DNA of 60,072 nucleotides, the filler included, from Hausera hauseri (Eukaryota), in NCBI GenBank assembly GCA_046269625.1. It is 9 parts of 9 records of this genome, joined end to end, with 100 filler letters (N's around TTAATTAATTAA, not from the genome) between each part and the next. Parts side by side here need not be neighbours in the genome. Positions count along the whole stretch, not along the records: positions 12,001 to 17,646 come from JBJURY010214744.1; 8 more parts are not named here. One strand, written 5' to 3'. The translations under genes and the position numbers were made by a program. Below the pieces are notes generated by a model that worked only from the letters and a program-made list of their open reading frames with translations, did no database searches and was not told where the DNA came from. This document shows, in pieces, positions 5,020-30,385 of the stretch. Each line of letters starts with the position of its first letter. Position 1 is the first letter of the stretch.

Positions 5020-7830
5020 GCGCGTAATTCTCACCGATTGTCCCATGACTGTGCCGTGCGAATGCTTTCGTATGTCGAATTGTCGTCAAGGTCGGAAAGT
5101 TTAAACAGAACCCGTATTGGAGTCCCAAAAAGTGCCTCGGCTGTAGCACAACCCGTGGTGGTGGAAGGAGTGTTGCGCCAACCGAGTAGAACAAATGGCA
5201 GGATAGACGTCCAATTGCGATGATTGTCTGCTAGGATTTTTAAAGAAATTTTAATAGTTCGATGGAATCTTTCAAGGAGGCCATTTGCTTGTGGTGGTAC
5301 GGTGTTGTATGGAAATATGATATCCCCAAGCATTTAACAAGCGATTTAAAAAGTTCCGATTCGAACTGCGGACCTTGGTCCGTTATGATATGCCGTGGGG
5401 ATCCAAAACGACTGATCCAGATTTTGATGAAGGCATGTGCTACTGAATCAGTGTTTGTTGAACAGAGAGTAACGGCTTCAGGCTAGGGAGAAGCACGATC
5501 CATCATAATGAGAATATGTTGATACCCGTTATCGGAAAATAAGGGTCCAACAAGATCAAGATGGACGGTATGAAAACGTGATGTACATGGGAAATGGTAA
5601 AGCGGCGGTTTAAGCTGTTTGTTGACTTTGTATTTTTGACAGGCGATGCATTCCTTAACCCAACCCTATACATCTGTGCGCATTGATGGCCAAGCTACAA
5701 TACGTTGGAGCAAACAAAACGTGGCTTTCGAGCCTGGATGATGAAGTGAATGCGTGTGAAGAAAAGCTGGTTTCTGCAAAGAAGGAGCAAGAATGATTTT
5801 CTTGTTACCGGGGTTAGATATGTATTATGCAATGCCATCAATAATTTTAAAGGATTTGAATGAGCTAAGAATATCGGCAGACGGTTGACTGAGCTTTACA
5901 ATTTCGGTAGAAAATATTGGTTCAACCGTAATTGAGCCGATCGACCGTGACAGGAAATCCGCGACCAAATTCTCCATACCTGAAATATACTTTATGACAA
6001 AACTAAATGTAGACAGGTACAATATATGTCGATCCTGCCTCGGTGATGGCTGTTTAATGACATGATGTGCACCAGAGGCTTTTGAACCGTTTGGATGATA
6101 AATGGGTGAGAGAGGAGGAGATGCTTGAAATGTTTTACTGCCAGAACTATGGCTAGTAGCTCACGACTAAATGTAGAATATCGGATTCTGGTTTTGTGAG
6201 TTTTCGAGAGTAAAATTCCAAAGGTTCGTCGACGCCGTTGGAAATTTGGTGTAGTATTGCACCTGTAGCTGTGGAAGAGGCATCAGTGGTAAGTATTAGC
6301 TCCGCGTCCGGTTTTGGATAAGCCAGTATTTCGACGGTTTTTAGGCCTTCACGTAAGTGATCAAATTTGGTAACTAAATCGAGAGTCCATTGGATTAGCT
6401 GTCTTTTCTTTCCAGATGAGAGGTGTGCGAAAGGTGCTGTAAGCTCAGAGAAATGCGGTATGTATTTGTGGAAAAAATGTAGCGTGCCAAGAAAATTTCT
6501 CATATCTGTAGTGGTCGTTGATAGTGTTACGTTTTTTAATTTCTGTAGTCGATCAGGTTGTGGAGACTGGCCGTGAGGAGTGATAATGTGGCCTAAGAAC
6601 TTGACACGTTTCTGAAAGAAGTTGTACTTGGAGAAATTAACTTGTAAGTTGCTATGATGTAGTCTGTGAAAAATAATTCGGAGGTGTTCATGGTGTTGCT
6701 TCACGGATTTGGAGGCAACTCGTATGTCATCGATGTAAGGATAAGCAAAATCAAGGCCTGAGATAACGGTGTCGATGTGACGTTGAAAAGTTTGGGCTGC
6801 GTTACGTAAACCGAATGGCATAAACATGTATTCGTAAAGGCCAAATGGAGTGATGACAGCAGTCTTCGGAATGTCATCGGGTGCAACGGGAATTTGATGG
6901 TAGGCTTTGTGCAGATCTATTGTGGAATAGGTATTGGTGTTGTTAAGACTGTGCAGGATGTCTTTTATGAGCGGTAATGGGTAAGCATCCATGATGGTTA
7001 GATTGTTCACTAGACGGTAATCTCCATATGGTCGAAAAGTACCGTCCTTTTTTGCCACAACATGTAATGGTGAAGCCCATGGTGATTTGGATCTCCGAAT
7101 GATACCAGATTTTTCGAGTTCGTTAAACTCTAATTCCACTGCTTTTCGTCTACGAGGCGATAATGGTCTCACCTTTTATCTGATAGGTCTTTGATGTTGG
7201 GTGACGATGTGGTGATAAATTGTTGACAGGGGCTTGAAGCTAGAGTCTTTTTTGAGCATGCGAGAGCAAGAAGAATTGATGTATGATTTGAGATTGTAAT
7301 CTAGTGATAAAAATGATTGAGACGTATTATCGGAGGAGGCGGTGACTGTGATTGGCGAAGAGTGAACGACGTTGTCGCCGTCAACGTTCGGTTTAACCGA
7401 TCGTTTCAAAATCGACTTCGGTGTTTTAGGTGTAATTGAGAAAATAGATAAACTACTAGATGTATCGTTATCGACCGATAAGTAATTTGCCACATTCACG
7501 TGTGAGTTCGCAGTCGTTTGGCCTGTTGCGTTGTCTGTTAGACTGTTGCTAAAGTTCACGACGGAGTCTCTACGTAGCAAACGACCATACTTGCAGTCAA
7601 CTAGCAGGTCGTATGCGGCCAAAAAATCTGATCCGATTATTGGCGATTTAATGTTGGCCACGTGGAATTTCCAGACAAACTAGCCTGGTAAGTTTGCGAA
7701 TGTAAAGACTAGTTCTGTGGTGCCTGTGATTCGCAAAGGTTGACCGTTGGCGGTGAAAAGCGGAGGGAAAAAATTGTCGTTGATGTGGGGACGAAAGACA
7801 AAGGTAGGAGTGAAAAGGCAGCTCCTGAGC
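5020..7830 (-). mobile_element. Ty3/Gypsy LTR retrotransposon pol (protease end, RT, RNase H, integrase), decayed
   Basis: PIIGSDFL, SPWASPLHVV.KKDG, DAYPLP, YMFMPFGLRNA, YIDD, LTTDAS, ENLVADFLSR, VHLDLVGP, ITDQGPQF, QANGLLERFHRT; RT-RH-IN order. Confidence 0.95.
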
Positions 7831-9077: not shown

Positions 9078-11165
9078 TTATACCGTGTTACTATCGGACG
9101 CCATCTTCCACAGGAGAATCAATTCTTGAATTAAAGTATCGTGTCTGAATGCAATTCGATTGGTTGGCACATTTGTTTTCTTGATATCGTTTCCTTTAAC
9201 GCCTTCCTGCTTGAAATTATTGCCGATATATCTAGCCTTCCAGTCGTCGCTAAATCCACTCATCAGAACACTATTTCTGGCTAATTCACACATGTCGGTT
9301 GACGACAGTTTCCATATTTGAGCAGCAATACTGTACTCTTCCATTAAAGGTTCTCTTGTATAATGAAATTGTAATGGATCATCCGTACTTAAACTAACAT
9401 TCAATCCACAGCTAAAATAGTCGAAAATCGGATTCTTTTGATATTCAAGAAAAAGTGAATTGTTACTTAATGGAGACATGGCAACTCCTATCTGACAGAG
9501 GTAAAACAAGTATTGAATGACAGGTGCCTTTCGCAAAAGTAATCCATGATTTATACTTTCAGCCAGCAGAAATGAAGCTACTAAATGATGGGTTGAACCT
9601 GACTCGCCGCAGTGAGGTCTAAACGAGAATGTGTTTAGTCCTCTTGACTTTCGTAATTTGTTCAGAATACTTAGATTAACGAACATATAATACAGATAGT
9701 AAGCGTATGGCGGGTTTGTTTCGCATGACCACTTATCTGGAGTTGACATATATTCATTGAGTAAACATGATTCTGGTTTTGATTCATCGTCCACAGAGTC
9801 AAAACCACTAACATTCTGTAAAAATCTATGTAATTCTGGATGGCTGTCAGGATTGAGAGTAACTTCAAATAACGGTAAAAACAAATTTTCAAGTATTTCT
9901 GCATACGATTGAACTAATTTGTTTCTTTTGAAAATGTCGTAGATTCTTGGGACTTGTATCATCCACTTAACATTATCGGAGTACATGTTGTTATTATCTG
10001 CCCATTTTGCCAATTTATCCCACTCATCTTTTGATGTTCCATAGACGGATAAACGAGGTTCAATACTTATGTATTTTGATTCTTCAATTTCATCAATTAC
10101 TTCTCTCATTACTTCAGCAAATAATTTGCCTTCATTAAAGTTGTTCGTTTTAAGGAAAATGTCTCTCAATTGAGCTTCACCAGCCGGATTGTATTTGTTG
10201 TTGAAAACATCGAAACGATGAAATGTGTTTCTGTCACAATGCATATCGAGTTTGTCTATGTTAAGGTCATCTGGTGACAAACCCAAACTGTTAAACACTT
10301 CACTCAATGTTAATATTTTTCCACTTTTCTTGTCTTTCATCACTTCTCTGTGGCCATGTTTATTCAGACTCTTTTTGATAAATCTCTGTAAATGTTTCTG
10401 GTTCATAGCTGCTGCAGCGTGGATATGAGTGTCGACCTTCATTATATTGTAAAAGTCGCGATGGGATGTTGATTTTAATTCAGCAGATTCATTTAATTCA
10501 TTTAACATTCGATGCATTTGAAATTTGGTTTTCAAGAAGTTAAGTCTTCGGAAACAAAACGATTTCAATGGCCCATCGCTCACTAAAGCACAAATGGCAT
10601 AAAAGTCATCGCAAAATTGTTTCAGACTAATGTTGCATAAATCAGTTTCTGAATTTGACGAATTTCTAGAAAAATTTGCAACACCCTTTATAAATACCAC
10701 TTCTGATAAACTTAACAAATCCTTCATACAAGTAACTTGACTTCGTCCGATTAGTTGTTTGTAATTAGAGACATGATTGTCTGAAACTACATTTCCATTT
10801 TGACAAGACGATCTCATGTAGTACTTTCGTAATTCAATGGCATCTACTAAAGCACTGACCTTCTCTTCTATTTCTTCAAGTGCTAAAGTAACACTTTCTT
10901 CTCCTGATATACTGATCTTATGATAATTTGGAATGTTGTAGGGAGAACTTCCAAAACAGTCTTCAAATTGTGAATAATTTAATGATTTATGATTATGTAA
11001 CTTTGGACTATGAAGCATAGACTCTATCATTTGCTCTTTAATTTCATTGTTTTCCCTAAGATTGTCGGAAATATTCAATTCATAATCCATCAAATCTTTG
11101 CCTGACGTACATTTTGCCTTACTTGCTTGTCTGTAAAATTCCATGGTTAATTTTGATACAAACAC
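9078..11165 (-). CDS. AMPD: AMP deaminase; uninterrupted ORF, true start probably ATG at 11090
   Basis: KVDTHIHAAAAMNQKHL, GFDSVDDESKPE, FRPHCGESG, HGLLLRK and the signature SLSTDDPLQFH are all intact. Confidence 0.97.
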   Translation of the reverse strand: MFVSKLTMEFYRQASKAKCTSGKDLMDYELNISDNLRENNEIKEQMIESMLHSPKLHNHKSLNYSQFEDCFGSSPYNIPNYHKISISGEESVTLALEEIEEKVSALVDAIELRKYYMRSSCQNGNVVSDNHVSNYKQLIGRSQVTCMKDLLSLSEVVFIKGVANFSRNSSNSETDLCNISLKQFCDDFYAICALVSDGPLKSFCFRRLNFLKTKFQMHRMLNELNESAELKSTSHRDFYNIMKVDTHIHAAAAMNQKHLQRFIKKSLNKHGHREVMKDKKSGKILTLSEVFNSLGLSPDDLNIDKLDMHCDRNTFHRFDVFNNKYNPAGEAQLRDIFLKTNNFNEGKLFAEVMREVIDEIEESKYISIEPRLSVYGTSKDEWDKLAKWADNNNMYSDNVKWMIQVPRIYDIFKRNKLVQSYAEILENLFLPLFEVTLNPDSHPELHRFLQNVSGFDSVDDESKPESCLLNEYMSTPDKWSCETNPPYAYYLYYMFVNLSILNKLRKSRGLNTFSFRPHCGESGSTHHLVASFLLAESINHGLLLRKAPVIQYLFYLCQIGVAMSPLSNNSLFLEYQKNPIFDYFSCGLNVSLSTDDPLQFHYTREPLMEEYSIAAQIWKLSSTDMCELARNSVLMSGFSDDWKARYIGNNFKQEGVKGNDIKKTNVPTNRIAFRHDTLIQELILLWKMASDSNTV

Positions 11166-12000: not shown

Positions 12001-12479
12001 AATGGTTCGCGATTGTTAATGTGGTTATATATTCCAAAAGGTTTCTAACCTTGGTTTACCCAGACAGGTTATCTAATTTCTATATTCCGAGGTTCTCTCG
12101 GGGAATGCAATATTCTGGGGTCGTCGAGGGGCTCTGAATAACACATTTTCCGTAGGACTCCGTAACGTTTCGCACCTTCATAGGGGTCTTCTAATCTAAT
12201 TGTCCTTTTATAGATTTCTGTCTGATATGAGTTAATTGATCGTTTGTCACAGGCTTCATAGACTGGAGAGGTACAGAGTAGCATAGGCAATGGTGCTCTA
12301 ATGACAAAATACGTCTTATGTCTGTCTGTTCTTGGGAGTACTTCCCCTCCCCTAGGCTCGCCATCATCTGAATTATTCCTTTGCGTATTAGTTTTTTATG
12401 AATTTACGCTTGTAGAAGAACATAGGCCTCTCTTTTCGTTTACAATTATAATAACCGACATGGCGTTCTANNNNNNNNN

Positions 12480-14340
12480 NGATTTCCACCTACTTCCTTC
12501 GTATGCTTTTAAGAACTTTCCAAAAGTCGTTATGATTGCAGTCAGTATTGTACTTGAATATCCGGTCAATGTAAATATTTCATACCTATTTATTACTGCT
12601 TGGATGACTGCCTTAATCACTTGTATTAGAAAATATATCCCTAAGAATCCGGATGCACCTTGTCCAAAAATCAAAACTCTTCCCTAATTTTGTAGAGTAT
12701 TTTTGTAGTTACTCGCTGGTAATGGTTTTCTCCGAGCAAGGATTCCAATTTAGATGGATAGCGAGTATCATCTACTGCGGAGGTCATGGCTCGATTCAAC
12801 TCGTGCGTCCGTTGTCGCGGAAAAGCGTGAAATTGTCTGAAGGCTTCAATTTCTTTAAGCCTATATATACCCTTTGATGAGATGTCTTGACATTTGTCGT
12901 CTGTAATTCCTTTTGCAAGATTTTTTCCTGTTAATTTATTTGGAGCGGCAGTGATACCTCCATTTGGCAAACTGACCCAATCTGTTTCACTACGTCTAAA
13001 CATGGGTTCTACTAATCTTGCTTTACAATCCTTAAGAATTGTCGGTTCAGTTGCATTGTCTAATAGCACTCTAGAGAGTGGCATAGCTAACCATGGTAAA
13101 TAAGGGGAAATTCCGGTATGCTGCATTTTTCTTCAACGTTGATTGGTACATTTTTTCCTCACATTCGTAAGTCAATAGGACTTCACCGCTAAATCGATCG
13201 AAGATTCCTTCTCTCACAGGATTTATTGGGGATGCCAACTCGGGATTAGCGTAAACATGAGCCAGTTTTGTCCTCATGGTTTCCATATCCAATTTACAAT
13301 AGTTTGTTATCATTTTATGATATAACGCGTTTATTCAAACTGGCTCTTTGCAATAGAAATAATCGTCTCTGGTCTTCAGATAATCCTCAATTCAAATATC
13401 CTGCGTTTCCAGTTTGTAAGTCTTTGCATTTATTTCTGTTTCTGCGACAAAGAACGTTTCATAGTTGGTAGAGAACATCACTAGTTCACAACGAGAAACC
13501 ATTTCTTTCTCAATAAATTTCAGCCAATGCTGGTCAGAGATTAATGTACTAGACGTATGATGTTCTGATATATCTTCGCGTGTCCTTGAGTTGGTATCAG
13601 ATTTATCCCCATATCGCTTTCCGATATTTTCACTAAACTTTAATTCCTTAATATTGATAAAATTACAGCTTCTTCCAGGGGGAGTTTCCCATATTATAAC
13701 AGAACCTCTAAAAGCACAGGTTCCGTCTTGTAAATGGCATTTTTGATTTTCCTTATATACTTTGGTGACACTATAGAACATTACTTTCTGTGCTCACATC
13801 TCAGATTCATAGAAATCCACGACTACTACGTTTGCTTTTAATCCTTTTCCGGTGTAGTATTCCGCTCCGTTACAATGTCCGTTATGCATGTCTAACCTTC
13901 CGACCACTACCTTGTATGCCCTAATTATCTTTCCTGGTTGCATTTCCAATTCCATACTGTCCCATTGTACTCTTCCGGTCTCCTTAGCCTGTTTGCAGTA
14001 CAGGCGTTCTAAGTTCATCGGAATTAAAGGAGTTGTTGGATTGATTATTGAAGAATGTCCGTGTATTAATCCACAGTGAAAAATGCTTCGAGATCGTCTC
14101 AGCATACATTCCATTCCATCTAATGATATCAATTCTTGTTGTTGGTGCAGAAAATAATTTTCTCTCTCGTTTCTAACTTGTGCGGCATGGTATCTTCGCC
14201 CACTTCCAAATCCATTAGGTAATATCTCTGCCCTAGTTTAAACTTATCGCAGTTGTAGACGGCAACAGGGTCTATGTGCTTTATTAGCATCATCAAGGTG
14301 AGTAAGCTGATTAGCCAATTTGATTCGTTTTTCCGGTTAT
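12480..14340 (-). pseudogene. Chuvirus-like (class III fusion) envelope glycoprotein, copy A
   Basis: Signal-like WLISLLTLMMLI then VAVYNC; FHCGLIHGHSS; CHLQDGTC..IIWE; SGEVLLTYEC; PLSRVL; KGIY....E.FRQF.AFP; TM region FGQGASGFLGIYFLIQVIK..INRY. Confidence 0.8.
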
Positions 14341-17300
14341 TATTATCGGTTGTTACCAAATTACGTAGCATATCTTCCATCTTATTACTATTACCGAACC
14401 GTTTGTCCTCTTCCTTGTCGAATAGTCTCGACCAATTTACTTCGCAGGGTAGCTTTCTCGCCGGTCTTCGTGCTAAGCTTGTTGCACTATTAATTTCATC
14501 CTCTCGATTAGGATGTACTTTGATAGCTAAGTATAGTAATACTTTTCTTAATTCTTCAGTGGTCTTTTCTACCATGATCTTTTCAATTACCGATTCGTCG
14601 GTTAAGTTACTTTTTGATCGTTTAAAACGTGAACTTTTCATCATTCTAGCTACATTGAATATTGCTATTTGTTTATCATTTAATGTGTCATCTCGAAGGC
14701 TTAAATAATTTACAATACGTATTAAATTCTTCATTAATTCGTTTTATTCTTCATTGTCTGTGCTGAAAGTAGGAATCGACATTTGTCTCAACTCTCTAAT
14801 CAATTCTCCATTATAACTTCTTCTCGTGTCTTCTTAGGCCTACCGACTGGGCGTTTCTGTCTTGGGACATTGGCTATCATTTCACTCAGCAGCACTAAAT
14901 TCTTGTCGTATTGTTCCTTGTCCTCATCCGTTTGTAAATACTCGAAATACATTGCAGCATCTCGGACTCCCATGATTTGTTCTACGCATTGTTCCGTCTT
15001 GGCCTTACGCGTGGCTTCTCCTTTAGTTTGTTCATTGGCTACTATTATTACTATTCGATTTGTTTCGTTGGAAATAATCCCTACATCTATTAATTGTTCT
15101 AAATCGTCGAGTATTTCACCTCTAAAGTAAAATCTCTAATTTAGCTCATTTGTTCCGCCATTATTTAATAACCATTCTCTTACGTCCCTTACATAAGAAT
15201 ATGTAGTTATCTCACATTCTTTTTCGTCCATCTACTCGGATGATACCATTTCCTTATCAGAAGTTTCGGCACCATGGTATAAATTGTATTCTCACTATAT
15301 AATTTAGTTAAGGTCGGAATAAGTTGTCTTAACTTACTCTCAGTAATGTTTACGTTAATTAGTTGAATTACATTTTTTCCAGTTAGCGCTGAATCCAGGA
15401 GCATCTCCAAATTGAATCTCCTATTCTGTGGACATGTTTCTATTTCATTCAGTTGTACTGGAGTCACGGGATTTTCGGCCCTTATCGCATCTAAGTACGC
15501 ATCCCATTCCGATTCATTTCCAACATCTAGAAGTCCATAATCTATTAAGGCTATATTTGTTTTTTGCACATTTTCTCAAATTTCTTTCAATCTTGGTTGT
15601 ATTTTTTTCATCTGCGTAGTTCGAAAGCCTATTCCGTTTCCGCAGGCATACTGAATCATTTTCAGTAATTCGCCTAATTCATTAGAATTGATGAATTCCT
15701 TTTGGTAATAATCAGTTAGCTCAATAATTGCATCTCTCTGCCATCTTTGCACAAATTCTCGCTTATTTTTGATCTCTGATTCGGTAAAAGCATATTTGTT
15801 TCGGTAGATTTCGAGTTCTTTTACTAATTCATCTAACCTCGTTGCTCTTTGTTTTGTCTTAATACACGTTTCTTTAACCTGTCTTATTTTAGGCATAAAT
15901 TGTCACATCTTCTCATCATTAATCTCTGCCGTTTCTACTAATAGGAAGGCTAACTCATACATCTCATTTATGACCTTTGAGTCGGGATCCATTGCATCCC
16001 ACAATTTCTTTATGAACTTAGATTTTTCGAGACTAAGATGTTGGTTGTTTCTTATTTTTGTTAACTCGGTATGGCAATTCTGATCTGTTCCGGCCATCCA
16101 TTCTTGTGGTTTATGCAAGAATTTTATTGCTTCCGCTAAAGCTGCTCTATGTTCTGGACAAATATCTAGGGTTTCGATATCCTGGAATAAAATCTCGTCG
16201 ATAGGTATATATGTTAAATGTTGGACTCCTTCTAGTCGGATATTCCTTAATCTTGTACAGAAAGCGCAAGTCATATTTCTTTTTGTTGTGAAGTTTGTTT
16301 CTTCGATCATTTTATAAATTTCTTTCAGTATCGTCGTTTCTTCTTCTTCTTTATAAAATTTAGTCGTTATAAAGCTTCGAATTGCGTTCGGATATCTATT
16401 TCTGCTTGTAGTGTATCTAAATTACGTGCATTTTCTTTTAATTGCCCTTTTATAGATAGTTCGCTTTCTGGAAATTCTTTCTTACAGTCTTCTAATAATT
16501 TGCTTAGTCTCATTATTAATCCGGACCATTCCGACAATTGATTAGCGATTATTGGCTTTGCCAATATAGTTTTGTCTAGCATCTTATATGCATCCTTTAA
16601 TTCATCGTCTAGAGATTTTATGAAATTCGTAATCCGGCTGACATAACTAAATTCATCTTCATATTCATCAAATTCTATTATACAAGCTTATACTACGTAT
16701 TCTCTTTCTTCGTTGTTTGGAGACATAATTCGGTTTCTCAAACTATAAATTTGTGTGCGCTTTTCATTTTCCATTTTGATTTGATTCTCTAGGTTCGTAT
16801 ATTGTTTAGGTACAGCGAAAGCGATTTCTATCATTTCCATTAAGAGAGAAATATCTACTGGGTCTATACCCAATATTTCTAAATCGATATTATTTCGATT
16901 GCTAACCGGTTTTTCTCTAAGCCGATTAATCATTGCACAGCGAATTTCGTCCATCATACGCTCTAAATTACGGACTACTCTTTTCAGTTTCGAATTTGCT
17001 TCTAAGGTAGACAGTAGCGTCTGAGCTTTAGCAACTTTTACATCAACACTATTTTCATTTTTGCTCCATTCTTCCGAGAATTCAACTCCATTTTTAATCC
17101 ACGATTCCAATTCACGTTTCCATTTTATTAACGTTTTAGATGATACCTCTTCTGGTTGTCCTAAGTCGATTGCTTCATCAAGCTTTTCTTCACTACATAA
17201 ATTTAAACTTTTATATAATCTCTCAGCAAATTGTTGCTCCCTACCGAATATATCTACTTGTTCGCTAATCTGTTTAAGCCTTTCTGAATTTCGTTGTAAC

Positions 17301-17646
17301 ATTTCTGGATCGTGACATCTAATTCACATTTTCTTTAGTTCATCGGCGTTTTTCCTCAAACATCGAACTTTCCACTTTCACGGATCAAAATCATCAATAT
17401 TTTGCGTCTCTTAGTCACTAGTGGAAAGTGAGCAAACCTTGTTAATTTCATTAATGGACTCTACAGGTTCTTTTACCTTGATAGGTGTAAATTGACCAAT
17501 TTCTGATGTATTTAAGCTAGGCTCTACGTCTATGTCTACAGCGATGTTTATATTTTTCGTTTCTTCTATTTTCTCTCTAGTTACTTACGAACGTGATCGA
17601 TTTCTACGTTTCGTCTTTAATGAAGGGGTGCGGCCTCTATTTTTCG
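14341..17646 (-). pseudogene. Very long (~1100 codons, 5'-truncated) charged, coiled-coil-like ORF in gag position, running into the glycoprotein
   Basis: ORFs 16688-17302, 16367-16582, 15903-16310, 15576-15896, 15207-15569 and 14129-14734 abut across single stops or frameshifts; no canonical CCHC knuckle seen. Confidence 0.65.
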
Positions 17647-19929: not shown

Positions 19930-22046
19930 AACTATCGTTAAATGACTTTTACATATTTCTCACCAAGAATTGTACTTATTCCCATCTAATTCCTCTTTTA
20001 AATACATCAAATATTTCTTGATTTGATATCAATTCTAATTCTATTTTTGTTTGGTATAAACCTAAACTCCATGTTAATCCCGGTGTTGAAACAAAATAAC
20101 AAGGGTCGAGGGGAATCAAACTTCTAAATTTTATGATACAGTCACGTAGTAAAAAATATCTTGTTTTAAATATAAAATTGTGTATTCTAAATGATTTTTA
20201 CAATTAAATGTTCTATAAACCTGCTTATATCTCTCATATTCTTGATCAGAAATATTTGAATTATTTAACCTACTATAAAATGCTTCTTTAGGAAGTATTT
20301 CTGTTTCATAATATTTCTCAAAATTATTAAAATAATCATAAGGATAAACCCCTTTTTTCTTAACAAAAGATGCAAAAAATCGGAATTTTCTTGCTCAGTT
20401 TTTGTTAATAATTTTAAATATACATTATCTTCTGGTGAAAGAGATTTTGCAACATCAGCCAACGCACCTGATAAAAATCTGAAACTATCAACAAATTTAT
20501 AAAAATTATCAAATACCATAGAAATATAAGTTTCATCTGTTTTTGGAATAATTTTAATATCTTTTTCATATTTTGCTAATTCTTTAATAATTAAATGAAA
20601 ATCATATCTACTTCCATTATGAAAAAATATTGGAATTTCTTTTTTTATTTTCGCATTAATATTACATTCATTATGTGCTGGTCCTCTATATTTTCCGTTG
20701 TAATGATCATGGTCTAATACTTTTTCAGATTCAATATTTTGTTCACAATAATAGCAAATATTATTTGATTTATATTCATCGATTTCTTTTTTTGTGATAT
20801 TTACAGGATTATTTTTTTTCAAAGCTTTCAAAAATCTTTCTTTATTTTCAACCAACCATTTTACAAAATCTTTTACTGCTTCATTTTCTCCTATGAATAA
20901 TTTTTCTTCCTCTTGAATTAAATCCGGATAATTTGAAATAATTTTTACAAAAATTAATGTTGGTATTTGTTTTGATCTGATAAATGTTTTTTCATTTTCA
21001 TTATTAGCATAAAATACTTCTTCATTTATGCATTCAATATCTGCAACCATGATAAATGGTAATTTTAATTTATAAGAATAATTTGTGAATTTTAATATTT
21101 CTCCTTTTTTGGGAAATATATATTTCGTTGGTTCATTATCAATGCACAACTTTTTATGATTATCAATTGCGTTTTTATTAATGAAATAACTTAGACATTT
21201 TTCACAAATAAATATTTCTTCATCATGTCTTAAATTATAACCTAATTCAACCGATAAATAAGATTTTAAATTTTTTATCCACATAAAATGTTCTTCATAA
21301 TATAATAAATTAATTGATTTGGCAAAATTCTTTTTAGAACTATGATATATTGGAAGAGTTTTGTATGATTTTCTTTCGTTTTTATTTTTTCCTTTAATGT
21401 ATTCTAAATAATATACATTAATTTTTAAATTGTTTTTATTTTCAAAATTGTTTATTTTATTTATTTGCATTGGAAATTCAACCCCTTTCAAATTCAGATT
21501 ATTTTCAAATGGTTTATATTTTGAAACTCTTTGTGGATTTTCATCAGCTTGATATAAACATGATAGTACTGCCCATAGAAAACATTTTTCATCTTTATTT
21601 TTCACATTTACAATATTATTTGAAGCAAATGGCAACTTTTTAAAAGATTTTCCCATTAAAACATTTATTTTATTCGTATGGAGTGTTAAAAAAGAAAATG
21701 AAACAATTACCCAATTTGATTTAACTAATCTATCATTAATTTCTTCAAATTCTTTTATAAGAGATTGAAATAATGAATTTATATTAATTCGTGAATAAGG
21801 TGAATTTAAATTTTCTGGTTGTGAAAGAATTTTAAATGTTCTAATTTCTTTATCTTTAATATTTTTCATTTTAACATATACAGATAATGTAAATTTAATT
21901 GCTGTTTCAACATTTTTAATTTTATCAATAATATCATATTTAAATAAAATGAGGTATTATTCTATACTATATATTAAGAACTCTTTTTTGGAAATAACTA
22001 AATCATTTGAAATATTTTTTAAATTGTTTTCAGAATTTGTTTCCAT
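19930..22046 (-). pseudogene. Polinton-type protein-primed DNA polymerase B, AT-rich family; N-terminal/exonuclease half with an endonuclease VII-like insert, 3'-truncated
   Basis: NVKNKDEKCFLWAV, HFMWIK, CEKC, ADIEC (exo I), CYYC..VLDHDHYNGKYRGPAHNECN, FHNGSRYDFH (exo II); after a frameshift KGFYPYDY, YLKQD and LDPCYFVSTPGLTW. In-frame ATG at 22046 with one stop before 21869. Confidence 0.9.
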
Positions 22047-22147
22047 TTTTTAACCCCACTTTTTCTTTTATAAAACTTTATTTCCATTTTTAAAACACCC
22101 CCAAAAATATGCACTACCAAATATTGTGAAAAAATGTGCACGTAATA

Positions 22148-22289
22148 AGTAGATAGTAGAACCACTAAATGAAATAGCGAAGCAAAGCGTAGTGTTAGTT
22201 CAATTTTTTATATTTTTTCTAACGATCGGTAAGCAGTCAGAAAAAATATAAAAGTGAGGTGTTTTCATTTACTGGTTCTACTATCTACT
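22148..22289. repeat. 142-nt fold-back palindrome at the apparent element terminus
   Basis: 27-bp inverted repeat 22148-22174/22263-22289 (1 mismatch) enclosing a perfect 15-bp inverted repeat 22206-22220/22239-22253. Confidence 0.9.
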
Positions 22290-22866
22290 ATCCGACTGAG
22301 CCTGCCATGTCTGCCTGTGTTAGGTTGACCACTATGTCGTCCAGATCTTGTGTGTCGACTACCCATTTAAATGAACCTTACGGCAAGGGTTGCGAAAGCT
22401 CCCAGCCTTACAGGTTATTAATATCAATATACAGCAGTGATGTGATATCTGTAGCACTGACCTTATGCTTGTTGACAAATATCATGCTGCCGCGAATACC
22501 AACATCAAACAGCCTGTACAATTCCGGGTCTTGCAGCAGCTCAATGTTTAGATCCAGTGACATTAGAGCTGACGCCAAACTCATTCCCGATATGGAATAA
22601 AAGTTGAATGGCTGCAACCTACCTTCCGCCAGCACTTGGGTCAGAAATGCTTGAAACACGTCGGCTAATAAGTAGACGTTCAGTTTAAGATATTGGAGCA
22701 TGTAATCCAAAATGTTTCTACAGCCCAATTCTGTCGAAGATTCTTGTGCTCTCCGATATTCATCTTTTGTATATTTGTCCATGGCGGTGGTAATTGCTCT
22801 ACTGTCCGGAATCGCTCATATAATGTTGCCAAGTCATATGAAAATATGCATTTGCTACGTGAAATA
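22290..22866 (-). pseudogene. Polinton-type PolB fragment (exo III to motif A), same family as 52343-55879
   Basis: QYLKLNVYLLADVFQAF, GIRG, LLYIDINNL*GW, PLP..F.WV; collinear with ~53480-54000. Confidence 0.85.
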
Positions 22867-23003
22867 NNNNNNNNNNNNNNNNNNNNNNNNNNNNNNNNNN
22901 NNNNNNNNNNTTAATTAATTAANNNNNNNNNNNNNNNNNNNNNNNNNNNNNNNNNNNNNNNNNNNNAAATTTTATGGGTTTTTATTCTTTGTTTACTATT
23001 ATT

Positions 23004-23071
23004 CTAGGCTTAGTGTAAGTGCATCAGAAATTTTCTTTTTCTTGGTATTAATTGGGAATTAATAGTTTAGA
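23004..23071 (+). tRNA. trnE: mt tRNA-Glu (TTC)
   Basis: Anticodon arm AGAAA-TTTTCTT-TTTCT; acceptor CTAGGCT/AGTTTAG. Confidence 0.75.
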
Positions 23072-23077
23072 GAGTGT

Positions 23078-23581
23078 ATTATTATTCTTTTGAGTTTATT
23101 TGGTGTGGTTTTGTTGTTGATTTTTTTTTTTCAGTATGTTTTTAGTACTTTATATCTTGGTTTGATTTTATTGTTTTATTGTGCGTTAGTTTTTTTTTTT
23201 CTGTGTTGAGTTTCTGTAGTTTGGTATGGGTTGTTATTTTTTTTGTTGTACATAGGTGGTTTGTTGGTTCTTTTTTTTTATGTGTTGTCTTTAAGTGCTA
23301 AACCTGTATATAATGATAGTGGAGGAGGAAAGTTGGGTAGGTTTTTTGTCTTTGTTTTTTTTATTTTTGTTTGTTTAAGGATTTTTTTTTTTTTTTTTAT
23401 TTTTAGGTTTTTTGGGATTTTGATAGACTACTCTTGGTTTTATGATTTATCTGTAAGTTTATTTTCTGAAAAAGAGGTTGTTTTTTTAGTTTTTGTTGGA
23501 ATTTATATAATTTTGGTGTTGTTTGTTGTTAATGTTTTAACTTCTAGAGTTTTTGGTGCTTTTCGTCCTGTGCGTTTTTAG
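23078..23581 (+). CDS. nad6: NADH dehydrogenase subunit 6 (start uncertain)
   Basis: WYGLLFFLLYIGGLLVLFFYV and C-terminal GAFRP; open in table 9. Confidence 0.9.
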
Positions 23582-25288
23582 TTGAATATTTTTTTTTTCT
23601 ATGGTAGGTTTTTTTTTTTTTTTTTTTTTTTCTGTTTTATTATTTTAGGTTGATGGTGATTTTATGGTTTTAGGGTATTTTTATTAAATTTTGGACATGG
23701 AAGGTGAGCTTTAGATGTTTATGGTTTAGTTTTTATGTTAGATTTGTATGGTTTGTTGTTTTTGATGGTATTATTTTTGATAGTTAGTAGTGTGATGTAT
23801 TTTTCTGGGATATATATGAGTGAGGAGGTTGAGTCTTTTCGGTTTTTGGTGTTTGTTAATCTTTTTGTGAGTTCTATGGTTATTTTAGTTATTAGTCCGA
23901 GTTTTTTTTCCTTTCTTTTAGGTTGAGATGGTTTAGGTTTTAGTAGATTTTTATTAGTTGCTTGATATAGGTGTAGTAGGTCTAGTTCTGCTAGTTTAAA
24001 GACTTTTTTAATAAATCGTTTTGGGGATGGTTTGTTTTTGGTTGGTATAGTTTTTTTTTTTGGTTTTTCTAGTAATTTAGTCTTTTTTTATTTGGTAGAT
24101 TATGGTTTATTTGTTGGGTTTGTTTATGTTTTAATATTTATTTTGATGTTTGCTTGTTTTACTAAGAGGGCTCAGTTTCCTTTTTCTAGTTGATTGCCTG
24201 CTGCTATGGCAGCTCCAACTCCTGTTTCTTCTTTAGTTCATTCTTCTACATTAGTTACTGCTGGTTTGTATGTGTTGTTTCGTGTTTTTTCTTTATTTGA
24301 GTATAGAGCTCCTTGGTGTTTTGTTTGTTTTAGGTTTTTTGGTCTATTTACTTTGTTTGTTGCTAGTTTTTCTGCTTTGTTTGAGATTGATGTAAAGAAG
24401 GTAGTAGCGTTTTCTACTTTGAGTCAGTTGGGTTTTATGTTATTTGTTTTTGGTTTTGGTTTAGTTGATCTTTTTTTTTTATATATGTTAGTTCATGCGT
24501 TGTTTAAGGCTTTGATGTTCATTTCTGTTGGAGTATATTTAGTTTTTGGAGGTCATAGTCAAGATATTCGTTCTTTAGTTTCTATGTGGCATTTTTCACC
24601 TTTGATATTTTTTAGATTTTTTATTAGTGTTTTGTCTTTGTGTGGATTTCCTTTTTTATCTAGTTTTGTTTTGAAGGATAGTTTATTAAGGTTGGTTTTT
24701 GGAGTATTTGGAGTTAATTGATTTTTAAGTTGGTTGTTTTTTTTTTCTGTGATTTTAACAGTTTTATATTCTTTTCGTTTATTTTTTTTTTCTGGTATTA
24801 GCAGTGTTCGTTGTTTTTCCTTTTTAAGTAGTAGTACGTATATATTTTTTGGTGTTGTTAGTTTGTTGTTAGTTAGTTGTTTTTTTGGTTCTATATTTGT
24901 TGAGAATTTATTAGTTGTTAGCTTGGTTAATGTTGATTTATATGATTTTATTTTGGTTGTTGGTATGTTGTTCTTAGGGGTTTTTATTAGATTGTTTTTA
25001 TTTGATATCTATGTAAAGTTTTTTTCTTTTTTTGGGGTATTTTTTTTTTATCTTAGTAGTATTGCTTTTTTAATTTTTTGAGGTAATAGTTTAAAAAGTT
25101 TGGTTATTTATGGTTCTTTATTATTAAATAGTTTAGATAAGGGTATATTTGTAATGTCTTTTGTTGATGATCTAAAAAAGTTTGGAAGAAATTTGTTTAG
25201 GAAGTTTTTGAGTGGATTTAAATTTTTATATTCTTGATTATTTATAATTTTTGTTAGGTTGTGTTTTATTGTTTTTGTTGTGGTAATT
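23582..25288 (+). CDS. nad5: NADH dehydrogenase subunit 5 (TTG start, probably incomplete stop)
   Basis: [49 protein letters not shown] in one frame. Confidence 0.97.
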
Positions 25289-25289
25289 T

Positions 25290-25358
25290 TGAAGAATAGT
25301 GTTTAAAAATGCATATATAGCTGTTAACTATAAGGTAACTTTTTAGAAGTTTTTTTTA
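25290..25358 (+). tRNA. trnN: mt tRNA-Asn (GTT)
   Basis: Anticodon arm TATAG-CTGTTAA-CTATA. Confidence 0.8.
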
Positions 25359-25359
25359 G

Positions 25360-25544
25360 TTTAAAAATTTTTCTTAAAAAAAGTAAAGGTTGGTAAAAAT
25401 AATAAGATATTAAAGATTAAAGAATTAGTGAAATACTTATATAAATAGAGATATAGTTATATATATATTAATATATAGGTAAGAATATATTGTTATATAA
25501 TATAATTTATTTAAATTGAGGGTGTTTTTGTGTTTAAAAATTTT
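25360..25544. promoter_or_regulatory. AT-rich mitochondrial non-coding region, putative control region
   Basis: Longest intergenic stretch; TA-rich tracts; loses the T skew of the flanking genes. Confidence 0.55.
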
Positions 25545-25614
25545 TCTTAAAATAGCTTAAGGGAAGAGTTTACTATTCTTAATAGTGAGATAGATTATGA
25601 AGTCTTTTTAGGGT
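25545..25614 (+). tRNA. trnK: mt tRNA-Lys (CTT)
   Basis: Anticodon arm TACTA-TTCTTAA-TAGTG; CTT fits AAG-only Lys. Confidence 0.75.
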
Positions 25615-25628
25615 AAAATTATTAATTT

Positions 25629-25693
25629 GGAGGTAATTTATGTTTTATTTTGAAAGTAAGAATTAAAAAATTAATTAATTTTTTTTGTCTCTT
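25629..25693 (+). tRNA. trnS2: mt tRNA-Ser2 (TGA), D-arm reduced
   Basis: Anticodon arm TTTAT-TTTGAAA-GTAAG; acceptor GGAGGTA/TGTCTCT. Confidence 0.6.
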
Positions 25694-25699
25694 TGGAGG

Positions 25700-25764
25700 G
25701 TAAAGTAATTTAAGTTAGAATGTTATTTTGTGGGTGTAAATGTATGTTAGTTGTAAGTTTTGCA
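25700..25764 (+). tRNA. mt tRNA, His (GTG) or Thr (TGT); register ambiguous
   Basis: Acceptor GTAAAGT/GTTTTGC; loop region TTTGTGG. Confidence 0.45.
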
Positions 25765-25847
25765 TGGGATATCTTTACTTATCTCTTTTCTATATTTGTA
25801 GAATATATTTTAAATTGTATTAGGTTTTTTTGTAGAAATGTATTTAT

Positions 25848-26989
25848 ATGTTTTTATTAAGTAGAAGTCGGATAATAGTTTTTCGTTTAGAAGAGGTTAT
25901 TTTGAAGGCTGTTGGTTCTGTTGTGATTCATTTACCTTGTCCTAAGAAAATAAGTTATTATTGGAAATTTGGTAGGTTACTTGGAGTTTTTTTATTTATT
26001 CAGATAATAACTGGAGTTTTTCTTTCTTTTTATTATGAAAGTAGTTTATTAACTGTATTTGGTACTGTAGATTCTTTAATGCGTGATGTGTCAGGTGGTT
26101 GGTTTGTTCGTTTATGTCATGCTAAAGGTGCTTCTTTTTTTTTTTTTTTTTGTACTGTCATATGTTTCGTGGGTTATATTATGGTTCTTTTTATTTGATA
26201 ACTGTATGATTAGTAGGTTGTTTGATATTTTTGTTGTCTATGGTAGTTGCTTTTTTGGGTTATGTGTTACCTTGAGGTCAGATGTCTTTTTGGGGAGCGA
26301 CTGTTATTACTAATTTGTTTTCTGCTGTTCCGTATTTAGGTGATTTTTTAGTTATTTGATTATGGGGTGGTTATTCTGTGTCTTCTCCTACTTTAGTTCG
26401 TTTTTTTAGTTTACATTTTTTGCTTCCGTTTGTTATACTATTGTTAGTTGTTATACATGTAGTTTATTTGCATGAGAGTGGAAGTAATAATCCTTTAGGA
26501 GTTTCTTCTGATGGTGATAAGATTATTTTCTTTCCTTTTTTTGCTTTAAAGGATGTTTATGGTTTTTTTGTTGTTAGTTTAGTTTTTTTTTTTGTTATTT
26601 TAGGGTTTCCTTATATTTTTATGGATTGTGATAAATTTTTGTTGGCTAAAATTTTAGTTACTCCTTCTCATATACAACCTGAGTGATATTTTCTTGCAGC
26701 ATATGCTGTATTGCGTTCAGTTCCTAATAAGTTGGGTGGTGTAATTGGTTTAGTTATGTTTGTTTTAATTTATTTTTTTCTTCCTTTATTTGTTTTAAAG
26801 GGTGAATGTTTATTTACTTGGGTTGGAAGTTTTAGTGTTGTTTTTCAGAGATTATTTTTTTTTTTTATAGTAAATTTTATTTTGTTGACATGGATAGGAT
26901 CTAATTCTGTAGAAGATCCTTATATTTTTTTGGGACGTATTTTTGCTTTATTTTATTTTTTATTTTTTTTTGTTTATATGTTGTTTTAA
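25848..26989 (+). CDS. cob: Cytochrome b; one-base frameshift in the T17 run at 26135-26151
   Basis: [51 protein letters not shown]. Confidence 0.97.
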
Positions 26990-26992
26990 GTG

Positions 26993-27064
26993 TAACTTAG
27001 TAGCTTAAAATTTGAAGAGTGGGGTTTTGAAGGGACTCAGGTTGAATGTTATTTCCTATGTTGG
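26993..27064 (+). tRNA. trnF: mt tRNA-Phe (GAA)
   Basis: Anticodon arm GGGTT-TTGAAGG-GACTC. Confidence 0.65.
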
Positions 27065-27905
27065 TTTTATGTTTAGGTGAATTTTATTTTGGTTCTATGA
27101 ATTAGGTGATTTTGTTAAAATACTACTGAGTGATTTTTTGTGAGAAAAATTTAGGGTTGAAGTTTTGTTTAAGGTATGAATATTTTTGTGTTTGAGTTTT
27201 GTTTTATATATGTAATTAAGAAGAAGTTGATGAAATTTATGGGTAGTAAAATAGAGTGCCAGCAGCTGCGGTTATACTTGGTTCCTTTTAATCTAATGTT
27301 TAGGAGTAAAATATTTTATTTTATGTTTTTGATAAATTTTGTTTTAAAAATAGATGAGTTTATTATTGTTTAAGGTGATGGCTTGTTTTTTTTAGATTTA
27401 TGTTTTTTTGTTTTAGGTATTCTAATTTTTCTATTTAAACTAAGATTTGGTACCTTATTATAGGTTTATAATGAAGTTTTTTTCCATAGAGAATAAAAAA
27501 ATTTGGCAGTGAGTAAAATTTTCTGGGGAGTGTGTGGTTTAGAGGAAGGTACACTTACTATTTGAACAATTTTAATTTATTTTGGTTAGTGTACGGTTGT
27601 ATTTGTTTTGTGATTAGAGGGGCAGAGTTTCTTTTTTAAGGAGGTTTCTTAGAAAAATTCTGTTTTACAAATCAGTGTGCTGCAATAAGTTGGTTTATTC
27701 ATTCACTACGTTGATAGGATTTTTATAGAATGGCTTGTTGGCTATATATATGGGATTTTTTAGGACTAGAAAGTAAAAGAGTGTTATAAAATTGAGTTAG
27801 TTTTTTTGAATTTTTTTTTTATTTGTGTACACACCGCCCGTCAATTTTCTTAGGAAAGTAAGTCGTAACATGGTAAGTTTAACTGAAGTTGAACTTAAGT
27901 TTGTG
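27065..27905 (+). rRNA. rrnS: mt small-subunit rRNA (12S)
   Basis: GTGCCAGCAGCTGCGGTTATAC (~27256), GTACACACCGCCCGTCA (~27827), AAGTCGTAACATGGTA (~27860). Confidence 0.95.
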
Positions 27906-27907
27906 GT

Positions 27908-27977
27908 AAGTTTTTTAGTTCTTTCTTTAGAATTTTAGGTTTGTCGATTTTGTAGTTCGTTGGTGGTTCAAGGTTTT
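27908..27977 (+). tRNA. trnD: mt tRNA-Asp (GTC), tentative
   Basis: D-arm GTTCT..AGAAT, loop TTGTCGA; stems weak. Confidence 0.45.
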
Positions 27978-28986
27978 GTCCAGGAAAGGTGTTGTTTTTG
28001 TGTATGTTTAGATTTTGTTATATGATTTTTACTTTTTGTATCACGGTTCTAAGAGAATTTAGAATGTATTTATTTTTTCTCGATTTAAGAAGATTTTTTT
28101 TTTTCTTTTGTGTGTTTTTCTTGTTAAAAGTTGTTGAAAAGAGAATTAAGGGAGAGATATTTTTGTCGATTTTTAAATACTAGTTTAAGTTTTAGGGTTT
28201 GGATAATCAAATGTGAATTTATGAAAGATAAGGAGAAGAGAGGTTAAGATGTTTTTGAGGTGATATTACTCATTTTGGTTTTGTATCTTGCTTTTATATA
28301 TTTAGTTTTTTATTTTACTTTATTTTTTTGTGTTTAGTTTAATTTAGGAATTAGTTTAAAAGACTTTATTATTTATTCAATGTGTAACTCTAACTGTTTA
28401 TTAAAAACATTTCTTTTTAGTTTTTATAAAAGGTTTTCTCTGCTCGATGATGGTAAAAATTATTATTAAATTGCTGCAGTATTTTGACTGTGCTAAGGTA
28501 GCATAATTACTTGTCTATTAATTGTAGAATTGATTGAATGGGGTTTATTTTAAGGATTTGGGTTGATTTTAGTAATATTTTGTTGTAAGTTTTATATATT
28601 TAAATTTAAAATTTTGGTTAAGATTCCATTAAGGTTTATAAAAGATTGGTTTTAGACGAGAAGACCCTATTAGAGCTTGAATTGGATTTTATTTTTGTAT
28701 ATTTTGATTTTTAATGGGGAATTATTATCTTTTTTAGATTTAGAAGTTTTTGTGAAAAAGTTTCCTTAGGGATAACAGGAATATAATACTTTAGAGAGCT
28801 TATCGAAGGTTTTGTTTTTTACCTCGATGTTGAATTACTATGTTTTTATGGTGTAGAAGTTATGTGAAAATTAGTCTGTTCGACTATTGAAATAGTACGT
28901 GATTTGAGTTTAGACCGGTGATGAATCAGGTTGGTTTCTATCTAGAAGTTTTTTTGTTTAGTACGAAAGGATTAATAAAAGTTTTG
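27978..28986 (+). rRNA. rrnL: mt large-subunit rRNA (16S)
   Basis: GACTGTGCTAAGGTAGCATAAT, GACGAGAAGACCCTA, TAGGGATAACAG, ACCTCGATGTTG, TAGTACGAAAGGA. Confidence 0.95.
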
Positions 28987-29059
28987 TTTTAAGTGGCAGA
29001 AAAGTTTTAGATGTGTGGAATTTAAGCTTCTAAGATGGATTTTTTTGATCCCTTAAAAG
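28987..29059 (+). tRNA. trnL2: mt tRNA-Leu2 (TAA)
   Basis: TGGCAGA D-arm start; TGGAA-TTTAAGC-TTCTA; acceptor TTTTAAG/CTTAAAA. Confidence 0.85.
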
Positions 29060-29060
29060 T

Positions 29061-29130
29061 TTAAGAGTGGCAGAATAAATTAAGAATGTATTAGTTTTAG
29101 GAACTAAAGATGTAGATTATATCTCTTAAA
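29061..29130 (+). tRNA. trnL1: mt tRNA-Leu1 (TAG)
   Basis: TTAGT-TTTAGGA-ACTAA; acceptor TTAAGAG/CTCTTAA. Confidence 0.85.
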
Positions 29131-29134
29131 GATA

Positions 29135-29201
29135 GGATATGTTTTAGTGGTTAAAATTTTTTTGTGGGGGGGGGTTCATGGAGAGAAAATTTTTGTATCT
29201 T
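29135..29201 (+). tRNA. mt tRNA, Thr (TGT) or His (GTG); register ambiguous
   Basis: Acceptor GGATATG/TGTATCT; D-arm TTTAG..TTAAA; anticodon arm formed by T7-GT-G9. Confidence 0.4.
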
Positions 29202-29271
29202 TAGATATCTATAAAGATGGTTTTTGATAAATAAAGGTATTTTTTGAATTATTAAAATTTGTTGGGGGAGA

Positions 29272-29339
29272 GTCTTTTTAGTTTAAGTTTTTAGAATTTA
29301 TTATTTGCGTTAATAAGGTTGATTTATTTTGAGAAGATA
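29272..29339 (+). tRNA. trnA: mt tRNA-Ala (TGC)
   Basis: TATTA-TTTGCGT-TAATA. Confidence 0.75.
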
Positions 29340-29347
29340 AGAGTTTT

Positions 29348-29420
29348 ATAAAAGGTCTATATATTTGGTTTGAAAGCTGCTAACTTTTGAATGTGGAGTT
29401 TATAACTTTACACTTTTATA
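29348..29420 (+). tRNA. trnS1: mt tRNA-Ser1 (GCT)
   Basis: GAAAG-CTGCTAA-CTTTT. Confidence 0.8.
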
Positions 29421-29438
29421 TTTTTGGTATTTTTTACT

Positions 29439-29507
29439 TGCAAGATACTTGAGTAAAGTGCTTAGTTTCGGCCTAAGTGGTATGGATTGTTTGGTCTTTT
29501 TTTGTAG
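29439..29507 (+). tRNA. trnR: mt tRNA-Arg (TCG)
   Basis: CTTAG-TTTCGGC-CTAAG. Confidence 0.85.
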
Positions 29508-29525
29508 TTATTTTGTATTTAAAAG

Positions 29526-30305
29526 TTGTATAGTAGTTTTCATTTAGTTTCTGTTAGTTTATGGCCTATATTAAATTCTTTTGTTATTTGGAGGTTATTG
29601 GTGTTTAGTGTTTTTTGATGACATTATGGAGTTAGTGATTTTTTTTTTTTTGCTTTATTTACTTTAGTTTTTACTATGTTTTGTTGATGGTATGATGTTT
29701 TAATTGAGAAAAATTTAGGTTTTCATAGTAGTAAAGTTTCTTTAGGTTTTCGGTATGGTATAATTTTTTTCATAATTTCAGAGGTTTTTTTTTTTGTTAG
29801 ATTTTTTTGGGGTTATTTTCATAAATGTTGAAGTCCTAGGATTGAAATAAATGTTTGACCTCCTTATGGTTTTGTAGATTTGGTAATAGATCCTTTTTCT
29901 GTTCCTTTATTAAACACTGTATTATTATTGTCTTCTGGAGTTAGAATAACTTTTTGTCATCATAGGATGGTTGGTCAATTATTTAATGGAGTTTTAGTTG
30001 GTTTTATTATTACTTTGTTTTTTGGTTTTTTTTTTATTTTTGTACAGGCTAGTGAGTATGCTTATGGTTATTTTTCGATAAATTCTAGGATATATGGTAC
30101 TACTTTTTTTTTGTTAACAGGTTTTCATGGGATGCATGTTTTGGTTGGAGTAAGAATGATTTTGTTTAATTTTTTTCGTTTTGTCTTTAGTTTAGATTTT
30201 TCTAATGTTGTTCATGTTGGATTTGAGGCTGCTGTGTGATATTGACATTTTGTTGATGTTGTATGAATATTTCTTTTTTTTTTTGTTTATTGATATGGGT
30301 TTTAA
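29526..30305 (+). CDS. cox3: Cytochrome c oxidase subunit 3 (TTG start)
   Basis: FHLVSVSLWP, FIISEVFFF, PLLNT, TGFHGMHV, AAVWYWHFVDVVW; TAA at 30303-30305. Confidence 0.97.
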
Positions 30306-30310
30306 GTATT

Positions 30311-30384: not shown

Positions 30385-30385
30385 A

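Follow-up and report, generated by a model that had tools for sequence, protein, structure and literature searches.

Retroelements that carry an envelope gene in frame between gag and pol have been described before. The giant Ty3/gypsy element Burro/GYPSM1 of planarians was reported in 2019 with env in this position (PMC6431247), and GAG-ENV-POL 'errantiviruses' with an HSV/gB-type Env (HSV, herpes simplex virus) have been described from Platyhelminthes, Nematoda and Bryozoa in an account that cites the nematode NERVs for the flipped gene order (PMC13524379). We analyzed a stretch of 60,072 nucleotides from Hausera hauseri (GenBank assembly GCA_046269625.1), called the window below, which consists of short contigs joined by N spacers and contains two broken copies, A and B, of a decayed Ty3/gypsy family. 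An original prediction had placed in copy A an internal signal peptide joining a gag-position open reading frame (ORF) to a glycoprotein, and had proposed that signal peptidase releases the glycoprotein from a polyprotein. The NERVs, reportedly described by Sacco and colleagues in 2022 with a 'continuous gag-env-pro-pol ORF', share with the present element an Env derived from an RNA-virus glycoprotein and placed between gag and pol in a metavirus, in a different host phylum.

A search of the genome with the junction DNA returned 1,718 candidates, the best 40 of which were scored (83-100% identity), and seven other DNA searches along the element returned 1,415-2,582 candidates each. The copy sets used below are the best 40 matches per genome search, on contigs that are short. 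Within these sets, junction identity between copies ranged from 0.71 to 0.92 (median 0.82) and exceeded 0.97 in 0 of 1,176 pairs; the copies are old, and every copy seen is dead. Long natural copies gave the domain order: repeat, Gag capsid, a stretch rich in N, R and D, one CCHC knuckle, a domain that we call X, the signal, Env, its anchor, a linker, protease (PR), an insert, reverse transcriptase (RT), RNase H (RH) and integrase (IN) with a GPY motif. A repeat of at least 366 nt, 79% identical, stands at both ends of one contig, where it is truncated by the contig end. The pol order PR-RT-RH-IN was read on natural copies from PF00077, PF00078, PF17917/17919, PF17921 and PF00665; the RT is 41-45% identical to that of relatives, and the insert between PR and RT has no Pfam match. 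The two Pfam matches in Gag are below the cut-off (PF03732, E 0.007; PF00098, E 0.0025). The CCHC knuckle was read directly, and the Gag of the family is 37% identical (E 3e-15) to the N-terminus of P0010, a gag-bearing relative. Behind the integrase core there is a motif that we take, from its pattern, to be GPY/F. This motif is named as a hallmark in the text of PMC12440569, according to which Troyka has neither envelope nor GPY/F; an identity of the element with Troyka was rejected. The element is of the Ty3/gypsy GAG-ENV-POL type.

According to the published text on Burro (PMC6431247), in both elements one very long ORF begins with a typical Gag and contains a long insert, a mononegavirus-like Env placed in frame between gag and the protease, and a further insert separating PR from RT; both also have accessory ORFs (likely here) and a flatworm host (probable here). 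Burro exceeds 30 kb and encodes 4,873-5,140 amino acids (aa), whereas the outer ends of the repeats lie about 15.7 kb apart here (contig C377701) and the ORF counts about 4,150 codons, summed from coordinates. Unlike Burro, the present element showed one zinc knuckle and, in the stretches of X scanned, no BCL2, BIR, MATH or ankyrin match. Burro also has a SUMO-like domain before env and a dUTPase-like insert between PR and RT, compared here with ubiquitin-like Atlas rows at 0.77-0.78 and with the insert that Pfam does not match. The element is Burro-like, but we do not assign it to Burro because neither the size nor the apoptosis-related domains agree. With the errantiviruses, as they are presented in the text of PMC13524379, it has in common the gene order, a Ty3/gypsy Pol and a class III Env, and the Env rows of six Schmidtea elements resemble this Env by eye. 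The errantiviruses were defined there by intact multi-copy insertions more than 98% identical; here the copies are old and none are >98% alike among the best 40 matches per search. As far as these sources go, the literature on in-frame env is silent on how such a chain places Pol in the cytosol. The account of Burro names no signal peptide, topology or post-integrase membrane protein in its text, the main text of PMC13524379 holds 0 occurrences of 'polyprotein', 'in-frame', 'peptidase' and 'splic', and the text of the Anakin paper (PMC7642597) has no word on signal peptides.

Copy A lies on the minus strand of the contig at 12001-17646. Its frame 14743-14132 is open over 204 codons, with an ATG at 14734 and a stop at 14129-14131, so that the ORF joins the glycoprotein without a stop, as predicted. 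On this strand, the polar and basic n-region RKNESN (14335-14318) is followed by the 12-residue hydrophobic h-region WLISLLTLMMLI (14317-14282), by the c-region KHIDP (14281-14267), with the predicted signal peptidase site at its end, and by VAVYNC (14266-14249). The h-region contains no charged residue in 46 of the 49 copies, and its 11-residue hydropathy (2.71) is the highest found from Gag to integrase. Three residues before a Y-D/N-C motif, 40 of 49 copies obey the (-3,-1) rule of signal peptidase sites; copy A does not, having a proline at the predicted site. Copy B (60072-55980, minus strand) reads WLISLLTLMMLI-KQIGA-VTVYD at 59847-59782, its n-, h- and c-regions occupying 59797-59865. 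The stretch is nearly unchanged there, as the original prediction had it, but the open reading could not be maintained for this copy, which has one stop 38 codons before the stretch and another right after VTVYD.

The protein behind the stretch was identified from its matches. PF24664, the Monjiviricetes fusion glycoprotein, matched pieces of the window with E values of 3.7e-10 and 3e-5 and an unbroken copy with 4e-24, the alignment starting at profile position 5, which falls on the initial Leu of the stretch. A model of the unbroken Env stretch (mean pLDDT 60.8) was related by Foldseek to chuvirus-like glycoproteins (E 4e-10, with low TM-scores). Judged by these matches, Env is a class III fusion glycoprotein of chuvirus type, which bears out the prediction of a glycoprotein at this place. 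In copy A its broken ectodomain covers 12684-14266 (minus strand; PF24664 and Foldseek), and the reading departs from the glycoprotein frame near 14,160, about 53 codons past W.

The unbroken Env stretch was then searched against 1.84 billion representative proteins, yielding 103 matches. The motif region was missing from 37 of them, 2 started at the motif and 28 had no h-region beside it; where an h-region was found beside the motif, it was N-terminal in 21 matches, which are free-standing glycoproteins, and internal in 15. Pfam was run on 17 of the matches; nine of these join gag or pol domains to the Env start within a single unbroken protein, and the h-region is internal in all nine. In P0008 and P0018 one uninterrupted protein comprises gag, env and protease. 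No longer relatives emerged from word-indexed protein searches, a weak negative since these were limited to 2,000 aa. A compliant site at -3 from the motif was present in 13 of 14 internal relatives (at least 144 residues upstream), against a background of 0.13. Pairwise identity among these relatives is 15% over the 60 residues upstream and 18% over the signal. Since flanks so divergent nevertheless keep the site in register, it is the pattern that is conserved rather than the sequence. This register bears on the alternative of an uncleaved signal-anchor, or of a late cut as in the foamy virus leader peptide, in which Gag-X would remain joined to Env until freed by the element protease on the cytosolic side. 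Such an arrangement would accommodate the proline of copy A, and two transmembrane domains are said to flank some gB-type ectodomains (PMC13524379). However, the h-region is merely 12 residues long and a peptidase-type site stands in register both in the divergent relatives and in most copies, so that we regard this alternative as improbable.

To follow the reading frame, the element was tiled in 600-nt pieces, 8-54 distinct copies were aligned per tile, and stops were counted per codon column in the three phases; the opening tile, with 2 copies of 5' non-coding DNA, and uncovered tiles at the end of scaffold L210 were left out. Across all in-ORF tiles, one phase contained 0 columns with at least 50% stops and never changed, whereas the other phases had 7-47 such columns per tile. 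The open phase is bounded by the last stop shared upstream of gag and by a stop behind integrase that is common to 94% of copies. Each joint was found unbroken in single copies: from capsid end to X over 498 aa, from X to Env over 422 aa, from Env to linker over 441 aa, from anchor to protease over 503 aa and from integrase to a second signal over 469 aa. No shared stop precedes the hydrophobic stretch, in agreement with the original prediction; the 43 codons around the junction are open in 38 of 49 copies, with a scattered stop in 9 and a frame-breaking indel in 2.

Selection was measured by setting variants shared by 20% of copies or more against singletons, used as neutral yardstick, to give a relative dN/dS. 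The 42 codons before the signal showed 3 nonsynonymous (N) and 12 synonymous (S) shared variants vs 65 N and 13 S singletons, that is a relative dN/dS of 0.05 (p 3.5e-6). The comparison across the junction that the original prediction had suggested as a check thus revealed constraint upstream of the signal. The ratio was 0.05-0.07 in X and 0.02 in both Env and RT. One frame running from gag through env and pol to a second cassette behind integrase was maintained by purifying selection during the active life of the family. These values also bear on the idea that the signal is a passive leftover of a captured viral glycoprotein gene and that Env is non-functional in the family. Every copy is indeed broken, and junction identity between pairs is as low as 0.71-0.92; yet Env is under the strongest constraint of the ORF (17 N and 174 S shared variants), which already largely rules out such a leftover, and the unbroken relatives keep the same anatomy. 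We give this idea hardly any credence.

We consider it quite probable, on the features of the sequence, that the stretch is an internal signal and that the glycoprotein is released by signal peptidase from a single polyprotein. The proposal of the original prediction is supported to this extent by the continuous gag-env-pol frame, by an internal signal with conserved register and by purifying selection on the 42 preceding codons. In alphavirus and flavivirus structural polyproteins, internal signals alternate with stop-transfers and are cut by signal peptidase; this analogy concerns the mechanism only, as the proteins are unrelated and the signals lie 100-300 residues in. In the present element, the signal recognition particle would engage a signal that lies some 1,700 residues from the start of the chain, and the signal would thread the glycoprotein into the endoplasmic reticulum, where host signal peptidase would cut three residues before the Y-D/N-C motif. 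The left-over h-region would hold Gag-X at the membrane until the element protease or a host intramembrane protease freed it. A precedent for an envelope produced from far within a polyprotein is Atlas virus, a hookworm member of the Belpaoviridae with a single Gag-Pol-Env polyprotein free of stops and introns. According to the text that describes it (PMC9094657), Atlas virus is however a BEL/Pao element with a class II phlebovirus-like Env placed last, so that Pol never re-crosses the membrane.

Several observations weigh against release by an internal signal. The signal and anchor calls used hydropathy and the (-3,-1) rule as stand-ins for dedicated predictors. The 14 relatives were picked for having an h-region, so that only the site count is independent, and of the 30 matches in which over 60 residues precede the motif, 15 had an h-region. 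A compliant site directly before the motif (position 0) also occurs in 12 of the 14 relatives, and the exact cut is therefore not fixed. Constraint on the 17 signal codons taken alone was not significant (p 0.14), and the whole frame is unbroken in no single copy. Finally, an in-frame ATG with a purine at -3 is found upstream in 36 of 49 copies. This ATG (14369-14371, minus strand, in copy A) stands 19 codons upstream of the first h-region Leu and is a possible alternative start, with a purine at -3 in 49 copies and a G at +4 in 1. The original prediction had held that a separate ATG just before the stretch would speak against it, and on this point it was contradicted in part.

Such a start would fit a different scheme, in which the polyprotein exists but most Env comes from a separate message, spliced or internally initiated, and the stretch is an ordinary N-terminal signal. 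In 8 of 14 relatives a Met is found no more than 30 residues away or where the h-region starts, and the 1:1:1 Gag:Env:Pol ratio imposed by a single chain is, on general grounds, awkward. The ATG is however absent from 13 of the 49 copies, and 6 of 14 relatives lack a Met at this distance. No pyrimidine-rich acceptor was detected (best share 0.56 before any of 20 conserved AG sites), nor any dip in synonymous variation at the junction (29th-59th percentile), and with no stop between X and Env a read-through product would form anyway. We judge a separate message unlikely as the main source of Env, though an additional env-only message may be made alongside the polyprotein.

Release from the polyprotein raises the question of topology. 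A signal followed by one anchor leaves Pol in the cytosol, while a second anchor would make it luminal. The first segment after Env has a median hydropathy of 2.04 (34 of 40 copies); in copy A this anchor lies approximately at 12618-12683 (minus strand), as read from the sequence, where the family value is a 19-residue median. A weaker, hydrophobic or amphipathic segment, assigned from hydropathy and the model, follows with the cytosolic linker towards the protease (12001-12617, minus strand), the contig ending at 12001. This second segment, 23 codons after the first, is a point of difficulty: its median is 1.52, with charge and proline, and 1.6 is reached by 9 of 34 copies and by 1 of 11 relatives. 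In relatives it carries basic residues and cysteines. In the model a long helix passes through the anchor and is separated by four residues from another helix, but the model, being membrane-free, leaves a hairpin and a surface helix indistinguishable. Because Pol is under selection in this frame and has to end up in the cytosol, we read the second segment as a probable surface helix on the cytosolic side. The original prediction had C-terminal transmembrane segments return Pol to the cytosol; this agrees with one anchor, or an odd number of them, but the plural does not agree well with a borderline second segment. With a single anchor at the end of Env, the enzymes that follow (protease, RT, RNase H and integrase) would be cytosolic. 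In the 4,844-aa relative P0104, a mini cassette at residues 2088-2150 (signal, 18-residue loop, anchor and basic tail) stands directly before the protease; with this extra signal-anchor pair the number of segments is again even and the parity is kept. P0104 also has several protease-like domains. The conserved signal, the peptidase register and the single anchor offer a testable answer to the problem of making such a chain with Pol in the cytosol.

Past the GPY motif, the frame continues into a second hydrophobic stretch (11-mer hydropathy 2.45), about 400 residues with 9-11 cysteines and a Thr-rich stalk. A strong anchor (3.09) and a short tail then lead to the stop that 94% of copies have in common. 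This second cassette, with a signal, a Cys-containing beta-rich ectodomain, stalk, anchor and stop in frame behind integrase, was read outside the window on four scaffolds (L031:2700-900, minus strand; L046:2630-3757; L219:491-1669; L239:593-1900). It is under purifying selection (relative dN/dS 0.04-0.12, and 0.11-0.12 for the stretches on these four scaffolds); the final segment gave a ratio of 1.0, which is uninformative as it spans the short tail and about 36 codons past the stop. Among relatives extending past integrase, a signal-like stretch was seen in 4 of 4, and an ectodomain with anchor in 3 of 4 (P0002, P0003 and P0104). The second ectodomains of these three contain an L-x-P-x-T-x-Y motif, which we take to be of fibronectin-III (FN3) type. 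P0003 is filed under a bacterial metagenome bin despite being an animal-type retroelement polyprotein, probably through contamination of the bin. In P0014 (residues 2780-3243) the post-integrase signal is followed by a different Cys-rich ectodomain without the FN3-type motif, so that the slot may take different cargo.

The second ectodomain of the family had no blastp match to those of the relatives at E 1e-3, with a poor three-sequence alignment, and no match among PDB sequences. Its model has a low pLDDT (49.5); the top Foldseek rows were tandem FN3 domains (E 4e-7, TM 0.17-0.22), with cytokine-receptor domains also present, and the best VIA match had a Z of 8.0 (rmsd, the root-mean-square deviation, 2.3; 82 aligned). 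PF00041 matched weakly (E 0.22), and the Atlas rows were at 0.83-0.86. A fibronectin-III-like fold, as the model suggests, is a lead rather than a result. A second round of insertion behind integrase would yield a second type I membrane protein, which might be the element's attachment protein. A loose analogy for that role is the fly surface protein Sas, described in the text of a preprint (10.1101/2022.09.06.506798) as binding Gag-derived Arc capsids and targeting vesicles. It is possible, if short of probable, that a clade of Ty3/gypsy elements encodes a two-part entry machine in a single polyprotein that passes through the endoplasmic reticulum membrane twice over. Signal peptidase would free both parts, a class III fusogen before Pol and an FN3-like receptor-binding protein past integrase, and the first signal would keep Gag tethered to the membrane. 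Herpesviruses and paramyxoviruses divide fusion and attachment between separate proteins, and such a machine would be their counterpart among retroelements. In the text of PMC13524379, cell entry by gB-type elements is called unknown, herpes gB is said to need partner glycoproteins, and no second glycoprotein is described; a membrane protein encoded behind integrase would be a direct candidate for the missing partner, and an annotation ending at integrase would miss an envelope component. The in-frame gag-env-pol layout is already published, but a second signal-ectodomain-anchor behind integrase was not found in print; we found no description of a post-integrase membrane protein or of signal peptidase processing in the literature, where figures, supplements or Repbase entries may hold one.

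Between the zinc knuckle and the signal lies domain X, of about 1,280 codons. The ORF that the original prediction had put in the gag position turned out to be the last 200 codons of this domain, past capsid and knuckle, and is neither capsid nor nucleocapsid. In copy A, the decayed 3' part of X (14336-17646, minus strand) is charged and helical, with many private stops and shifts and no Pfam match above cut-off, and the positions of capsid and zinc knuckle fall beyond the contig edge. The natural stretches of X scanned gave no match in Pfam or PDB sequences, and BCL2, BIR, MATH and ankyrin families were likewise absent from their Pfam results; such domains are carried by the relatives P0006 (Bcl-2) and P0104 (ankyrin). 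Within X, the segment 15030-15200 (minus strand), source of the ubiquitin-like Atlas rows and a lead only, resembles by eye the second half of a ubiquitin-like fold, and its place is similar to that of the SUMO-like domain of Burro. A reading of 'AIKVHPNR' in copy A as a J-domain was rejected, HPN being found in 1 of 32 copies with a readable motif (49 examined).

In copy B, the broken glycoprotein with its anchor covers 57858-59796 (minus strand; Pfam and copy comparison). About 1.2 kb, corresponding to linker and protease, is gone at 57857/57858 compared with three longer copies, and the broken pre-RT region, RT and RNase H follow at 55980-57857 (minus strand; PF17919, E 9.5e-19; PF17917; PF00078). 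As RT and RNase H lie downstream of the glycoprotein in this copy, env precedes pol.

Elsewhere in the family, the tile just past the polyprotein stop has one phase open in 12 copies, and long open stretches without any Pfam family occur in the roughly 3 kb from this stop to the 3' repeat (L249:2354-3595, L255:1416-2471, L259:1113-2114 and L251:1647-2585); these are likely to be one or more accessory ORFs. A 508-codon unbroken sugar-transporter ORF (PF00083; L216:3386-4909) shares a contig with the gag end of the element and is possibly a captured host mRNA. In the window itself, two further decayed gypsy-type pol regions without env are found at 5031-7679 (minus strand) and 41578-44529 (plus strand). 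A mitochondrial contig, T/G-skewed and with several frame breaks in homopolymer runs, occupies 22967-36960; at conserved cob positions AAA is read as Asn and AGA/AGG as Ser, as in the flatworm/echinoderm code, from which the host is probably a flatworm, the code pointing there without proof. Decayed pieces at 20265-22815, 46105-49533 and 52456-55861 resemble Polinton-type DNA polymerase B genes, and a 695-codon unbroken ORF at 9078-11165 (minus strand) encodes what we take, from its motif, to be an AMP deaminase.

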